Shown: piece after piece, positions 2,846 to 54,257 of the stretch
How the letters are laid out: every line of letters begins with the position of its first letter
How positions within the stretch are numbered: the stretch's first letter is position 1
From: Cytophagales bacterium
GTDB taxonomy: Bacteria; Bacteroidota; Bacteroidia; Cytophagales; VRUD01
DNA: 64,000 nt
Reading direction: 5' to 3'
Assembly (NCBI GenBank): GCA_019456305.1
Contig: VRUD01000012.1
Coordinates: forward strand, 3,531 to 67,530
Notes under the pieces: generated by a model
Databases searched by the model: none
Told to the model about the DNA's origin: nothing
The model's input: the letters and a program-made list of their open reading frames with translations, nothing else
Translations under genes and position numbers: made by a program

Positions 2846-3361
2846 ATGAACACAATTATCTGCCCCTTCTTATTCCTGACAATTTTTAATCTCGCTCTCA
2901 CTGCCTGCTCGCAGAACGATGATCTTGATAAAAAACTAAAAAACATATTAGAATACAGCGTTCCAATTATTAAAGTAGAAGAAGCGCTAACACAGGAACA
3001 AAAGGATAATGTTTATTTTTTAGACACCCGCTCCAATGAGGAATATCTTGTAAGCCACATCCCCAATGCAATCTGGACAGGCTTTGATAAATTTAATATT
3101 CAAAAAGTGCTCGATATTCCAAAGGATGCATTAATTATCACATACTGCTCAGTAGGTTACAGAAGTGAAAAGATCGGGGAAAAGCTGCAGGAATCCGGTT
3201 ATAAAAATGTTTGGAATCTATACGGTGGTATCTTTGAATGGGTAAACCAGGGAAATGAAGTTTATAACAAATTTGACCAACCCACAGATAGCGTGCATAC
3301 TTATAACAGGAGTTGGGCAAAATATTTAGAAAGAGGGATAAAGGTAGTAAGTAGTAAGTAG
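2846..3361 (+). CDS. rhodanese-like domain lipoprotein
   Basis: Lipobox LALTAC; rhodanese core ...FLDTRSNEEYLVSHIPNAI...ITYCSVGYRSEKIGEKL...GGIFEW. ATG at 2846; the longer ORF-track start lies in repeat sequence. Confidence 0.8.
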   Translation: MNTIICPFLFLTIFNLALTACSQNDDLDKKLKNILEYSVPIIKVEEALTQEQKDNVYFLDTRSNEEYLVSHIPNAIWTGFDKFNIQKVLDIPKDALIITYCSVGYRSEKIGEKLQESGYKNVWNLYGGIFEWVNQGNEVYNKFDQPTDSVHTYNRSWAKYLERGIKVVSSK

Positions 3362-3457
3362 TAAGCAGTAAGCAATAGGCAGTAGACAATAGACAGTAGA
3401 CAAAAGACAGTAGACAATAGACAGTAGACAATGGACAATAAGACAATAGATTAATTG
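3343..3457. repeat. heptamer tandem array (GTAGTAA / ACARTAG units), family 'cagtagacaat'
   Basis: ggtagtaagtagtaagtagtaagcagtaagcaataggcagtagacaatagacagtagacaaaagacagtagacaatagacagtagacaatggacaataagacaatagattaattg. Related arrays at 11425-11450, 52985-53045, 53212-53255 (inverted) and 59296-59340. Confidence 0.9.
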
Positions 3458-3518
3458 TTTTTTTTACAGGACGCACCTACGGTGCTTAATTTTTTATTGT
3501 TTTAAATTTTCTTATAAT

Positions 3519-6345: not shown

Positions 6346-6394
6346 CGCATAGAGCATAGCGCATAGCGCATAGAGCATAGAGCATAGCACATAG
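6346..6394. repeat. (RGCATAG)x7 heptamer array
   Basis: cgcatag agcatag cgcatag cgcatag agcatag agcatag cacatag, starting 6 nt after the stop of the 4943..6340 CDS. Puts TAG in all three frames. Confidence 0.95.
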
Positions 6395-6400
6395 TGCCAT

Positions 6401-6431
6401 AACCCCGCACTTAAATTTATGTGCGGGGTAA
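6401..6431 (+). terminator. stem-loop after the 4943..6340 CDS (possible terminator, no clear U-tract)
   Basis: aaccccgcac-ttaaatttat-gtgcggggt; 9-10 bp GC-rich stem. Confidence 0.35.
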
Positions 6432-6524
6432 CAAACAACCATTAACTAATAACTAAACACTAAACTACTTAATTGCTTTATATGTTTTACAACTTGACCT
6501 AAGCAGATAGGCAGTTAATTTTAT

Positions 6525-6532
6525 TATCTTTG
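6525..6532 (+). promoter_or_regulatory. candidate -7 promoter box (TAnnTTTG)
   Basis: TATCTTTG only 5 nt upstream of the ATG at 6537. This argues that the real start of the downstream gene is further in (6618). Confidence 0.35.
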
Positions 6533-6601
6533 CATAATGTTAAAACACCTCAAAAACGCAGAGCGCAAATCGCATAGCGGTGAACCCCGCCTGTGGCGGG
6601 G

Positions 6602-6637
6602 CCATGCTCTATGCTCTATGCGCTATGCGCTATGCGC
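6602..6637. repeat. (CTATGCK)x5 heptamer array, inverted relative to 6346..6394
   Basis: ccatgct ctatgct ctatgcg ctatgcg ctatgcg, preceded by hairpin ccccgcctgtggcgggg (6586-6602). Puts ATG in all three frames. Confidence 0.95.
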
Positions 6638-7268
6638 TTTATTTATTATTACTTCAGCGAAGTGTCATAGCCAATCCTTTAAGATCGCCAAGTTCAAATA
6701 CAATGGCGGGGGCGATTGGTATGCTAACAAAACCTCTCTGCCTAACCTGATCGCATTTTGTAATAAGAACCTAAAGATGAACATTGCTGCTGAGGAAGAT
6801 ATTGTAGAAGCAGGCAGTCAGGAATTATTTTCATATCCATTTGTACATATGACAGGCCATGGTAATGTGGTATTCTCAAAACAAGAAGCATACAACCTGA
6901 GAAAATACCTTATAGGCGGAGGCTTTCTCCATATTGATGATAATTACGGGCTGGATAAATTTATCCGGGTGGAAATGAAAAAGGTTTTCCCTGAACTGGA
7001 TTTTGTGGAGCTGCCTTTTGATCATCCTATCTACCATCAGAAGTATAATTTTCCAAAAGGTTTGCCCAAAATCCATGAGCATGACGGCAAGCCGCCACAA
7101 GGGTTTGGCCTGATCTATGAAGGACGCCTCGTTTGCTTTTATTCATACGAATGTGACCTGGGCAATGGCTGGGAAGACCAGGTTATTTATAATGATCCTG
7201 AAGAGATAAGACGACAAGCACTGAAAATGGGAGCCAATATTCTCTCATTTGCGTTGACCGATTATTAG
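6618..7268 (+). CDS. DUF4159 domain protein
   Basis: FKIAKFKYNGGGDWYANKTSLPNL...YPFVHMTGHGNVVFSKQEA..LRKYL..GGFLHIDDNYG. I prefer the start at ATG 6618 (MRYALCALFIITSAKCHSQ, signal-like). The maximal ORF begins at 6537. Confidence 0.75.
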   Translation: MRYALCALFIITSAKCHSQSFKIAKFKYNGGGDWYANKTSLPNLIAFCNKNLKMNIAAEEDIVEAGSQELFSYPFVHMTGHGNVVFSKQEAYNLRKYLIGGGFLHIDDNYGLDKFIRVEMKKVFPELDFVELPFDHPIYHQKYNFPKGLPKIHEHDGKPPQGFGLIYEGRLVCFYSYECDLGNGWEDQVIYNDPEEIRRQALKMGANILSFALTDY

Positions 7269-51631: not shown

Positions 51632-52945
51632 ATGAATATAGCAGTAATTGGAACCGGTTACGTAGGCCTGGTTACAGGAACCTGTCTGGCAGAAACAGGT
51701 AATAGTGTAATATGTGTTGATATTGATGTGGAAAAGGTCCGGAAAATGAAACAGGGCATCGTCCCGATTTATGAACCTCACCTGGATATTATTTTCAAAA
51801 GAAATCTAAATCAAGGAAGATTAAGCTTTACAACCAGCCTTGAAAAAGCTGTAGCAGAAGCCAGCATCATATTTTTAGCATTACCCACACCTGCTGATGA
51901 GGATGGTTCGGCAGACCTCTCTTATGTTCTTGGTGTTGCTGAAGGGTTAGGGAAGCTTATTAATGATTATAAGGTGATCGTGGATAAGAGTACCGTACCA
52001 GTTGGAACGGCTGAAAAAGTAAGAAAAGCCGTATCAAAAAATGCTAAAAACGATTTCGATGTGGTTTCAAATCCAGAATTTTTGAGAGAGGGATATGCCG
52101 TTGATGATTTTATGAAGCCTGACAGAGTAGTCATCGGTACGAATTCAGAAAGGGCAAAAAAGATCATTGAAGAGCTTTATAAACCATTCGTTCGCCAGGG
52201 TAACCCCATCATTTTTATGGACGAAAAGTCTGCAGAGCTTACGAAATATGCTGCAAATGCTTTTCTGGCCACTAAAATCTCTTTCATGAATGAGATTGCC
52301 AATTTGTGTGAAAAAATGGGCGCTGATGTTGATATGGTTAGAAGTGGAATTGGAGCGGACAATCGTATAGGAAAGCGTTTCCTGTTTGCTGGAATTGGTT
52401 ATGGCGGGAGTTGTTTTCCAAAAGACGTCCGGGCGCTTGCTAAATCTGCCAGTGAATACCAGTATGATCCCAAAATCCTTAAAGCAGTAATGTCGGTCAA
52501 TGAAACGCAATCCCTTGTAATTGTGACAAAGATAAAAGAATATTACCAGGGTCATCTGAAGGGAAAGAAAATAGCGATCTGGGGGCTGGCATTTAAGCCG
52601 GATACCGATGATATCCGGGAGGCTCCTGCTTTAATTGTCATTCGTGAATTATTAAAAGATGGCGTAAAAATAACAGCTTTTGATCCTGAAGCAATGGATA
52701 ATGTAAGGAAAAAAGGGATTAAAATTACGTTTGCCAATGATCAATATGGTGCTCTTGAAAATGCTGACGCATTGATCATAGCTACGGAATGGTCAATATT
52801 CAGAACACCCGATTTTGATAAAATTGTAAAGCTCATGAAACAAAAAGTGATCTTCGATGGCAGGAATTTATACGATACTGATCAAATGAAAAAATTGGGG
52901 TTTTACTACAATAGTATTGGTAGGGAAGTTGTAAAAAGGAAATAA
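51632..52945 (+). CDS. ugd: UDP-glucose 6-dehydrogenase
   Basis: MNIAVIGTGYVGLVTGTCLAE.GN.V.CVD.D..KV..M..G..PIYEP.L; GGSCFPKDV; WGLAFKP.TDD.REAP. Confidence 0.9.
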   Translation: MNIAVIGTGYVGLVTGTCLAETGNSVICVDIDVEKVRKMKQGIVPIYEPHLDIIFKRNLNQGRLSFTTSLEKAVAEASIIFLALPTPADEDGSADLSYVLGVAEGLGKLINDYKVIVDKSTVPVGTAEKVRKAVSKNAKNDFDVVSNPEFLREGYAVDDFMKPDRVVIGTNSERAKKIIEELYKPFVRQGNPIIFMDEKSAELTKYAANAFLATKISFMNEIANLCEKMGADVDMVRSGIGADNRIGKRFLFAGIGYGGSCFPKDVRALAKSASEYQYDPKILKAVMSVNETQSLVIVTKIKEYYQGHLKGKKIAIWGLAFKPDTDDIREAPALIVIRELLKDGVKITAFDPEAMDNVRKKGIKITFANDQYGALENADALIIATEWSIFRTPDFDKIVKLMKQKVIFDGRNLYDTDQMKKLGFYYNSIGREVVKRK

Positions 52946-52978
52946 AGGAATAAGGAAATAGGGAATTCATCAATTAAT

Positions 52979-53262
52979 GGTAATTCAATGGCAAAGGACA
53001 GTAGACAATAGACAAAAGACAAATAGACAATAAACAAGACAATTGCAATCAAGTTATAATAGAATATTATGTTTAAATTTAAAGAATTAACCGTGTAAAT
53101 ATATTTCTGAAAAAACTAAAAATGATTGGTTTGAAAAAGAACACGAGATTGGTAAAATGTTAAATCATATGATAAATTATCCTGAAAAATATACACGTAA
53201 AAAAAACAATTAATCTATTGTCTTATTGTCCATTGTCTATTGTCTACTACCATTGAATTACT
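52979..53262. mobile_element. inverted-repeat-bounded 284-bp element containing a gene remnant (possible decayed four-helix-bundle/23S-IVS-protein-type cassette)
   Basis: Arms: ggtaattcaatgg + (ACAATAG)n ... (CTATTGT)n + ccattgaattac. The right arm is the reverse complement of 3421-3457. Confidence 0.5.
53091..53213 (+). pseudogene. start-less ORF fragment resembling the C-terminus of a four-helix-bundle (23S rRNA IVS) protein
   Basis: ..YISEKTKNDWFEKEHEIGKMLNHMINYPEKYTRKKNN*. The ..IS...f..l......EIgKMLn.lI.. pattern is from memory of that family. Preceded by an in-frame stop, with no start codon. Confidence 0.35.
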
Positions 53263-53267
53263 ACTGA

Positions 53268-54257
53268 ATGACACCTAAATCAAGGTCTCAAAATAACAAA
53301 TGCACGCTGGTAACCGGCGCTGCAGGATTCCTCGGTTCTCATCTTTGTGACAGGCTTATCAAAGAAGGCTTTCATGTGATCGGGATTGATAACCTGATAA
53401 CGGGCAGCTTAAAAAATATTGAACACCTGTTTCCTTTAAAAGAGTTTGAGTTCTATCATCATGACGTTTCAAAGTTTGTACATATTCCCGGTAACTTAGA
53501 CTATATTCTTCATTTTGCATCCCCGGCCAGCCCGATAGATTACCTGAAAATGCCCATCCAAACGCTTAAAGTCAGTTCATTGGGGACACATCATCTTTTA
53601 GGTCTTGCAAAAGCTAAAAATGCTACGATACTGGTCGCTTCTACATCTGAGGTTTATGGCGATCCGCTTCAGCATCCACAAAGTGAAGACTATTGGGGAA
53701 ATGTCAACCCGATCGGTCCAAGAGGTGTGTATGATGAGGCAAAGCGATTCCAGGAAGCTATTACCATGGCATATCATAGATTTCATAAGATTGATACACG
53801 TATAGCCCGTATTTTTAATACCTACGGGCCAAGAATGAGGCTTGATGACGGACGTGCCCTGCCGGCATTCATAAGCCAGGCAATCAGGGGTGAAGATATT
53901 ACCGTTTTTGGTGACGGCTCACAAACCCGCTCATTTTGTTACGTAGATGACCTGGTAGAAGGGATATTCAGATTACTGATGAGTGATTACGTATATCCTC
54001 TTAACATTGGCAACCCTGATGAAATAACGATCAAAGAATTTGCTGAAGAGATCATTAAATTGGTAGGTGGCAAGTCGGCAAAGATAGTTTATAAGCCATT
54101 ACCTGAAAATGACCCAAAACAGCGAAGGCCTGATATAACCAAAGCCAAAGCCATACTGGGGTGGCAACCAAAGATTTCAAGGAGTGAAGGTTTAAAAATA
54201 ACATTAGAATATTTTAACAAAGTATTGGTTGAAAACATTGAAAAAGTTGGCAGTTAA
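53268..54257 (+). CDS. UDP-glucuronate decarboxylase (UDP-xylose synthase)
   Basis: [17 protein letters not shown]...G..V.G.DN..TG...N..HL; [29 protein letters not shown]; [12 protein letters not shown]...DGR; [14 protein letters not shown]. Confidence 0.9.

Follow-up and report, generated by a model that had tools for sequence, protein, structure and literature searches.

A hairpin unit of 284 bp occupies most of the spacer between two sugar-nucleotide genes in the window analysed here, i.e. the 64,000 nucleotides taken from contig VRUD01000012.1 of a Cytophagales bacterium (assembly GCA_019456305.1). The unit lies at positions 52979-53262, between ugd and a gene of the extended-SDR type that is termed uxs below. 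An earlier note, made from the sequence alone, had reported the unit, its inverted arms and, between them, a decayed gene likened to the four-helix-bundle (4HB) proteins first seen in 23S rRNA intervening sequences (IVSs). The question raised by this locus is what such a unit represents and how it came to lie between two neighbouring genes. The unit was found as described. It is very probably a non-autonomous, gutted copy of a hairpin-armed 4HB gene cassette, an intact version of which is present in the same genome.

Descent of the unit from an intact cassette

The source genome (4.25 Mb in 159 contigs, 37% G+C, 98% complete; contigs are designated C plus a number, and the window lies in C27) was scanned with the TIGR02436 model, which identified 16 places. 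One of these, C115:2257-2634, is the intact twin of the relic in the window. The gene there, P0001, has 125 codons, and its product scores 103.4 bits with PF05635 (cut-off 33.8) and 93.4 bits with TIGR02436 (cut-off 24), the nearest solved structures being 2GSC and 2RLD. The C115 cassette consists of a GACAATA-type left array, a 34-nt leader, the 125-codon 4HB gene and an inverse array; the intact copy thus carries the same type of arms as the unit in the window.

The unit is 100% identical to the C115 cassette over 47 nt, comprising the leader and the start of the gene, and over 132 nt at the 3′ end. The core is 181 nt long in the window copy versus 414 nt in C115, so that 233 bp are missing internally. 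This deletion took out codons 10-86 and placed the two remaining pieces of the gene in different frames. It is apparent from these comparisons, which rest on sequence, that the unit descends by deletion from a C115-type cassette.

The relic alone gives weak matches to the profile models, restricted to C-terminal positions (PF22296, 15.8 bits, E value 0.02, cut-off 40; TIGR02436, 12.8 bits, E value 0.11, cut-off 24). It falls below the cut-offs of both models and is therefore a fragment of a member rather than a member itself. The proposed resemblance to the 4HB proteins is nonetheless borne out, since the relic is identical, over the stretches given above, to a bona fide member at C115. The description of the relic as a start-less open reading frame (ORF) fragment applies to its C-terminal piece, the reading of which was correct; the start codon and nine codons in all persist in another frame (53069-53098). 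No close relative of P0001 was found among viral contigs.

The features of the unit and its surroundings, by position in the window, are as follows.

51632..52945, + strand: ugd, UDP-glucose 6-dehydrogenase-type nucleotide-sugar dehydrogenase, the upstream host gene (ORF of 437 aa; TIGR03026, 473.6 bits; top named model UDP-glucose 6-dehydrogenase TuaD)
52936..52965, no strand: solo array of the octamer AAGGAAAT, 3.8 copies by TRF, overlapping the ugd stop codon; a separate repeat family (about 62 arrays in the genome), outside the cassette
52970..52991, + strand: outer left hairpin layer, units GTAATTCAATG of an 11-mer family; 12/12 complementary to 53250-53261; without counterpart in the other four gutted copies
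52992..53034, + strand: left arm, tandem heptamers of the GACAATA / GACAGTA type (TRF period 7)
53035..53068, + strand: 5′ leader, from the arm to the start codon; together with the 13 nt that follow, it makes up the 47-nt stretch of 100% identity with C115, C149, C111 and C118
53069..53098, + strand: gene-start relic, ATG plus eight codons and then a stop (MFKFKELTV), by translation; aligned with the parent MFKFKELTVFKKAF...
53094..53213, + strand: gene-end relic, by translation the last 39 codons, ..KYISEKTKNDWFEKEHEIGKMLNHMINYPEKYTRKKNN and a stop, out of frame with the start; within the 132-nt stretch that is 100% identical to the parent
53214..53249, + strand: right arm, inverse heptamers TATTGTC / TACTGTC by TRF, forming an inverted repeat with the left arm
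53250..53271, + strand: outer right hairpin layer, 11-mer family, overlapping the start codon of the downstream gene (ATG at 53268)
53268..54257, + strand: uxs, extended-SDR sugar-nucleotide dehydratase/decarboxylase, UXS-like, the downstream host gene (ORF of 329 aa; 73-82% identical to the ugd-adjacent gene in relatives)

The deletion junction, aaccg/tgtaaatat, lies at 53093/53094, and the frame 1 translation of the relic reads ..PCKYISEKTKNDWFEKEHEIGKMLNHMINYPEKYTRKKNN, also given as ..YISEKTKNDWFEKEHEIGKMLNHMINYPEKYTRKKNN, in each case followed by a stop. As to the flanking genes, the label of ugd stands (TIGR03026, 474 bits), and 'UDP-xylose synthase' is plausible for its neighbour, which has partial matches to the dTDP-glucose dehydratase, ArnA and UDP-xylose synthase models, none of them at its own cut-off and none an equivalog assignment.

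The ugd-uxs spacer measures 322 nt, of which the unit takes up 284. The inverted repeat pairs 52970-53027 with 53214-53271 (58 nt each, 74% complementary) around a core of 33 nt (53000-53032 with 53216-53248) that is 88% complementary. The arms had been called exact inverses; this holds for the outer 12 nt (GTAATTCAATGG and CCATTGAATTAC, 12/12 complementary), the heptamer arrays being imperfect inverses. Period-7 arrays were delimited by TRF at 52997-53037 (5.7 copies) and 53214-53246 (4.6 copies). The inner 45-50 nt of the left arm are common to the intact C115 cassette and the four other gutted copies, and the number of outer units varies. When folded as RNA, the 311 nt from 52965 to 53275 gave -70.8 kcal/mol, compared with -42.0 ± 4.6 for shuffled sequences (z = -6.3; none of 100 shuffles as good). 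An Rfam search of 52800-53400 found no known RNA family.

Copies of the unit, their insertion sites and their orientation

A BLAST search with the C115 cassette located the gutted form at C149:17534-17822, C111:16900-17199, C118:22928-23205 and C18:35456-35725, in addition to the window. The flanks of the five copies are unrelated and their cores 100% identical, while the outer heptamers vary in number and sequence. Four of the five share the junction aaccg/tgtaaatat; the C18 copy has a secondary loss of 24 bp. An identical junction with one to two bases of microhomology is unlikely to have arisen four times over, which argues for one deletion followed by copying. The alignments show, at the level of sequence, that the gutted unit has been copied to at least five unrelated places, in the manner of a miniature inverted-repeat transposable element (MITE). 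For two of the copies mis-assembly is excluded, because their flanking pairs (ugd with uxs, and rplO with secY) are partners in other genomes.

More decayed copies were also observed. One is a solo arm in the window, and its features are these:

3344..3468, - strand: family member reduced to a solo arm, which retains the terminal 18 nt of the cassette 3′ end (on the + strand, ttaattgttttttttac); BLAST to C115, 87% over 109 nt and 98% over 50 nt

The earlier note had related the right arm of the unit to the reverse complement of 3421-3457; the two agree at 36 of 37 bases, and the BLAST match (98% over 50 nt) extends into the last codons of the gene. A second decayed piece, arm plus 3′ end, is found at C118:2437-2576. 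Within 3344-3450 the array units shift stepwise (GTAGTAA, AGTAAGC, AATAGGC, AGTAGAC, AATAGAC), as if they had been mutated and then duplicated directionally.

Two further families show the same pattern. In the AGCTGTT-armed family, whose parent is at C30, five gutted copies share one structure in which the gene interior is swapped for a small hairpin of the family's own units. The CAGTCGG-armed family (parent at C120) has a type retaining only the 5′ part in five copies and a type retaining only the 3′ part in two to three, each type with a shared junction. Neither the 5′ nor the 3′ part is thus found in every derivative, and the arms are all that the copies have in common. Genome-wide, at least 35 relic loci were counted.

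Several details of these derivatives may be recorded. Nine codons and a stop are kept in gutted copies of two families, MFKFKELTV in the window (53069-53098) and MATGFRNLT in C64, C77, C159, C148 and C91, and both families break within 2 nt of a homologous TTAACC(G) site in the gene. A 16-nt perfect palindrome, TCCCGAGTACTCGGGA, caps small hairpins in or beside gutted CAGTCGG-armed cassettes (C91:22620-22880, C64:17230-17395, C159:25380-25520, C42:26600-26760 and the 3′ flank of C150); at C91 the hairpin so capped stands in place of the 4HB gene interior.

Insertion sites were compared with those of 40 relatives, all from the same order as the source and none from the same genus or family. Of nine loci in relatives, six have the SDR gene immediately after ugd; the spacer measures about 0-35 nt at five of these and about 120 nt at the sixth, compared with 322 nt in the source. 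The C18 copy is situated between rplO (encoding L15) and secY of the ribosomal spc operon, where the gap is 290 nt. These two genes are present in most of the 40 relatives and are about 0-40 nt apart in all six in which the distance was measured. By this comparison of gene neighbourhoods, the unit is shown to have been inserted into a normally very short ugd/uxs junction. The flanks of the C149 copy are too poorly conserved in relatives for an empty-site comparison. In the C18 copy the rplO stop codon falls within the first arm repeat, and in several other copies the upstream stop codon overlaps the arm by 6-18 nt.

In four of the five copies, palindromy runs past the shared segment into another repeat family. 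The outer layer of the window copy is built of the 11-mer units GTAATTCAATG; for the 12-mer, 44 occurrences were counted genome-wide versus one expected, nearly all of them in hairpin-forming 11-mer arrays. The outermost layer of the C149 copy consists of AGCGCAT units, and the C18 and C118 copies sit in hairpins of the TGACAGT / CTGTCAACT type. The simplest reading of these nested sequences is that the copies were inserted at the centre of existing hairpins, symmetric outward growth being an alternative. We read the outer 11-mer layer at ugd/uxs as a pre-existing host hairpin. The nesting suggests that hairpins are to be seen as targets no less than as scars.

Orientation was also determined. 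Each of the 20 elements examined follows closely on a gene of its own orientation, and all 15 of those with tandem neighbours are co-oriented with both, including eight of eight gutted copies; in the gutted copies, protein expression cannot be the reason for the orientation. In other genomes, 71 elements were co-oriented and 4 were not. Orientation relative to G+C skew, taken as a proxy for the direction of replication, showed no association (11 versus 9), although many skews were near zero and the test is a weak one. As far as this crude proxy shows, orientation would appear to follow transcription rather than replication.

The position of the elements could also be explained if the unit were a host regulatory hairpin between ugd and uxs (a terminator, attenuator, processing site or mRNA stabiliser) in which the relic is incidental. 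All elements lie downstream of a co-oriented gene, the uxs start codon is within the outer stem, and many short heptamer hairpins occur just past stop codons, at least one of them followed by a T run. This explanation is nevertheless judged improbable. Five of the six adjacent loci in relatives have the short spacer given above and no such element, the same gutted unit is also found between rplO and secY, and the 100% identity of the cores at five unrelated loci speaks for recent copying, not local selection. A terminator search of the unit, moreover, found no terminator-like site.

Intact 4HB genes, their arms and the repeat landscape

According to the earlier note, genes of this family are themselves embedded in inverted repeats. 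This is the case in the source genome, where all 11 intact 4HB genes are situated between inverted tandem arrays; neither a lack of similarity of the relic to the family nor intact members without such flanks was observed. The arms are made of units of 7-13 nt, with a distinct unit for each gene; one gene is divided between two contig ends (C123 and C38). Identity between paralogues is 14-36%, except for the pair at C115 and C120, which are 62% identical and have the related units CAGTAGA and CAGTCGG. An automatic census placed 35 of 3062 ORFs between an inverted pair of arrays, and these included eight of the ten 4HB genes that lie on a single contig, three GxxExxY genes and one IS200/RAYT-like gene.

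Relatives of P0001 were found at 142 loci, at 46-74% identity, in many Bacteroidota and in other phyla. Flanking inverted repeats were present in 110 of the 142, and in none of 98 shifted controls at the same score. Shifted flanks were used as the control after cross-locus pairing had been dropped, since unrelated loci share the heptamer family and inflate that comparison. Among 87 strong cases the arms have a period of 7 in 82; AGTTGGC is the unit at 43 loci, and most have this unit or a close variant of it. Retention of the arm unit across proteins that are 46-74% identical indicates that the unit goes with the protein subfamily over large distances.

A second cargo family has the same architecture. 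Five GxxExxY genes (TIGR04256, PD-(D/E)XK-like), two of them with a stop, all lie between inverted tandem arrays, with arm units that include GCGCAAAG, CACAGATT and ATACTAATG:

C158:5265-5615, GxxExxY gene
C64:1192-1536, GxxExxY gene
C121:12417-12767, GxxExxY gene
C150:12687-13010, GxxExxY gene
C74:2842-3165, GxxExxY gene

GxxExxY genes may also occur as IVS cargo; a literature search found no paper on GxxExxY genes in that role.

The IS200/RAYT-like gene of the census (SLHSYSRCWLHIIWATKNR..., C83:16684-17190) has short GC-rich hairpins and 10-mer arrays (AACCGTTATT family, 26 arrays) on its flanks. The presence of this gene and its flanking hairpins would be in keeping with the view that the gutted unit is an ordinary insertion sequence-derived MITE or mobile insertion cassette whose movement depended on a conventional transposase. 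That origin is considered very improbable, as the alignment of six copies has neither conserved termini outside the arrays nor a direct target repeat. In addition, each of the ten complete intact cassettes has an arm unit of its own, with one related pair (C115 and C120), and a single transposase is unlikely to recognise them all.

The genome as a whole contains 4459 short tandem arrays, among which period 7 is dominant, and 397 inverted array pairs, 223 of them less than 150 nt apart. For most of the largest array families, there is one cargo gene whose arms are built of the same unit:

CGGCAGT: 208 arrays; cargo with the same arms, the 4HB gene at C120
ACGAATT / ACGAATG: 104 arrays; cargo with the same arms, the second 4HB gene at C120
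AGCGCAT: 102 arrays; cargo with the same arms, the 4HB gene split over C123 and C38
GACAATA: 73 arrays; cargo with the same arms, the 4HB gene at C115
AGCTGTT: 40 arrays; cargo with the same arms, the 4HB gene at C30
CACAGATT, GCGCAAAGA and ATACTAATG: 17-20 arrays each; cargo with the same arms, GxxExxY genes

For the AAGGAAAT and 11-mer families, no cargo gene was found in the genome. Arrays of the GGCAGT type number 339 in the source, 112 in the relative G037, 10 in G010 and one in each of three other genomes. G010 has a P0001-like gene (59% identity) with matching arms; the remaining 35 genomes have neither the gene nor the arrays. In G037, many GGCAGT-type arrays are at contig ends, and the arms of its three 4HB genes are built of GAGTGGAT, GATAGTG and ACGAATT units.

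It had been suggested that many of the gene-less palindromes are scars or solo arms of such cassettes. Solo arms with cassette ends do exist, at 3344-3468 in the window, at C118:2437-2576 and in many places in the CAGTCGG and AGCTGTT families, and the sharing of units between the most abundant array families and the arms of single 4HB or GxxExxY genes points in the same direction. As a general account, however, the suggestion is unlikely. Some 35 relic loci with recognisable cassette sequence stand against 290 inverted array pairs and 4459 arrays, several abundant array families have no cognate gene, and the nesting implies that cassettes enter existing hairpins. Within the window, which has 73 arrays, cassette-derived sequence is confined to the unit at 52979-53262 and the solo arm, and the loops of other armed units, e.g. 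6346-6638, contain no 4HB remnant by TIGR02436 scan. The suggestion thus fits a minority of cases, in the window only the solo arm, and is weakly supported overall; the 4HB reading in the earlier note was right and its extension to gene-less palindromes weak.

The unit at 6346-6638 is itself of some interest. It measures 290 bp and has AGCGCAT arms and a 209-nt loop with two small GC-rich hairpins, a motif of the Bacteroidota promoter type (TATCTTTG) and no recognisable gene remnant. Short gene-less hairpins that pair TGACAGT/TGACAAT with an AGGCAGT-type arm were observed at C33:5003-5058, C94:26039-26059, C95:10958-10978 and C8:67697-67724. There is a systematic A/G difference between the TGACAGT and AGGCAGT arms, so that G:T wobble arises on just one of the strands; the hairpins come just after stop codons, one of those listed being followed by a T run.

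Possible mechanism and comparison with known systems

The following mechanism may be proposed. The unit would be transcribed together with the host operon by read-through from the upstream gene, and its stem of 50-60 bp would serve as a putative RNase III substrate, cut in the manner of rRNA IVSs. Excision of the insert from the transcript between cistrons would need no re-joining, so that insertion could do almost no harm, the spc operon included. In cis, copying may require no more than the arms, and it may take place at the tips of existing hairpins, with hairpin or cruciform DNA as its substrate. A factor acting in trans would be required, the leading candidate for which is the cognate 4HB protein of the intact copy, because arm units track the protein subfamily across many genomes.

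Stated in full, this account makes the 4HB 'IVS proteins' the trans partners of a REPIN-RAYT-like system, in which each protein would recognise hairpins of its own heptamer and drive the transcription-coupled spread of arrays, cassette and gutted derivatives to hairpin tips downstream of genes. It is offered tentatively, as one possibility, and a number of observations weigh against the mechanism as a whole. No movement enzyme was identified, the parent encoding only a 125-aa 4HB protein, and we know of no nuclease or recombinase activity for the 4HB fold. Precise ends and a target-site duplication were not seen in the alignment of copies, in which homology fades inside the arrays, a pattern that would also fit plain recombination. 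No empty site from the same species was found, the exact junction 24-mer being unmatched in metagenome and genome collections. In a genome that is 98% complete, 151 AAGTAAA arrays and AAGTAAA-armed gutted relics have no intact parent. G037, the assembly of which is fragmented, has its 112 GGCAGT-type arrays and no P0001-like gene, which suggests that arrays are not strictly gene-dependent. At 3344-3468 the decayed solo arm runs antisense to the genes beside it, both of the adjacent ORFs being on the + strand. Finally, the arms of the 110 armed relatives have no wobble asymmetry (171 versus 152, p = 0.32) and hence give no sign of strand-specific selection of the stem at the RNA level.

A serious rival is that recombination alone is responsible. 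The arrays would then be portable homology, and RecA-type gene conversion or template switching would bring the core into pre-existing hairpins with similar heptamers, in the absence of any element-specific factor. Target duplications and sharp ends are indeed lacking, the outer heptamers vary while the cores are identical, and GACAATA-like arrays are available at 44 loci. Moreover, the C18 and C118 copies lie in TGACAGT-type hairpins that resemble the arms, and GACAATA-type units are found within the 32 nt over which the outer part of the C149 copy is perfectly symmetric. The window copy, however, lies in an 11-mer hairpin without homology to the arms, and the outermost layer at C149 (AGCGCAT) is likewise unrelated. 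Palindromic arms offer homology both ways, yet the gutted copies are co-oriented with their neighbours in eight of eight cases. Conservation of the arm unit at 46-74% protein identity, furthermore, points to recognition of the unit and not to bare homology. Recombination as the sole cause is thus somewhat doubtful, but deserves to be considered in earnest.

What the '23S rRNA intervening-sequence protein' does, and where rRNA IVSs come from, have been standing questions since the 1990s. An earlier suggestion that rRNA IVSs were once mobile (PMC4990558) lacked direct evidence, which this genome supplies in clean form: one intact cassette, five gutted copies with a shared deletion junction, the same pattern in two more families, and two sites that are empty in relatives, one of them (rplO/secY) in an essential operon. 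To what is known it adds that each cassette family has progeny of its own, that copies are nested at the tips of hairpins, and that an orientation rule holds for gene-less copies too. A named protein family is thereby tied to heptamer tandem repeats, which are over-represented in bacteria without explanation (PMC4692102), and matched sets of protein, arm unit and non-autonomous partner are available. If the REPIN-RAYT-like account were true, it would explain both the excess of heptamers in bacterial genomes and the origin of rRNA IVSs. In a full-text literature search, no paper was found in which proteins of this family are connected with heptamer arms at sites other than rRNA, or with multi-copy gutted derivatives.

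Comparison with known systems may begin with the Avd accessory proteins of diversity-generating retroelements, which have a homologous fold; P0001 scores 41.9 bits with PF22296 (cut-off 40) and 37 bits with NF033474 (cut-off 80). Unlike those systems, the cassette is not accompanied by a reverse transcriptase, a template repeat or a variable repeat. Three loci with reverse transcriptase domains (four matches) were found in the genome, none of them near a cassette.

Inverted pairs of heptamer simple sequence repeats have been described in Xanthomonas and Nostoc, with no gene named between the arms and no link to mobile elements (PMC4692102). Those pairs, and the heptamers of the cyanobacterial short tandemly repeated repetitive (STRR) sequences, resemble the present arrays in being intergenic, often arranged as convergent stem-loop pairs, and variable in length between relatives at conserved positions. 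In the present genome, by contrast, genes of one specific family, and gutted copies of them, lie between the arrays.

Like MITEs and mobile insertion cassettes, the gutted unit is short, multi-copy and intergenic, has inverted ends, and arose by internal deletion of a longer parent; unlike them, it has a parent without a transposase, terminal repeats that are undefined beyond the arrays, and no target-site duplication. REPIN-RAYT systems (PMC3116915, PMC3337134) share with the cassettes a gene present in one or a few copies between its own inverted repeats, dispersed gene-less hairpin copies, a private repeat family for each gene and the absence of target duplications. They differ in that the protein here is a small four-helix bundle (PF05635) and not an HUH tyrosine transposase, and the repeats are tandem heptamer arrays and not repetitive extragenic palindromic sequences of 20-40 nt.

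The 23S rRNA genes had also been named as a place to look for IVSs with related arms. The sole assembled 23S gene (C8:34635-37562) has none, its length being 2928 nt versus the 2925 positions of the model. The likeness to ORF-bearing 23S IVSs, as found in Leptospira and Coxiella burnetii (PMC4990558), is nevertheless extensive. In C. burnetii the IVS combines an S23p gene, an inverted-repeat stem, tandem heptamers and excision by RNase III (PMC4990558). The parent cassette belongs to the same gene family (PF05635, 103 bits), its ORF lies within a long inverted-repeat stem, is sense to the host transcript and is prone to decay, and tandem heptamers in variable number stand beside the ORF (GACAGAT in Coxiella; PMC4990558). 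The unit differs in its position between protein-coding genes, in arms that are long arrays, and in belonging to families with gutted, multiplied derivatives. The ORF-bearing 23S IVS is therefore the closest known counterpart, although the unit does not have the rRNA location that defines that class, and by its behaviour it would be placed closest to REPIN-RAYT systems and MITEs.

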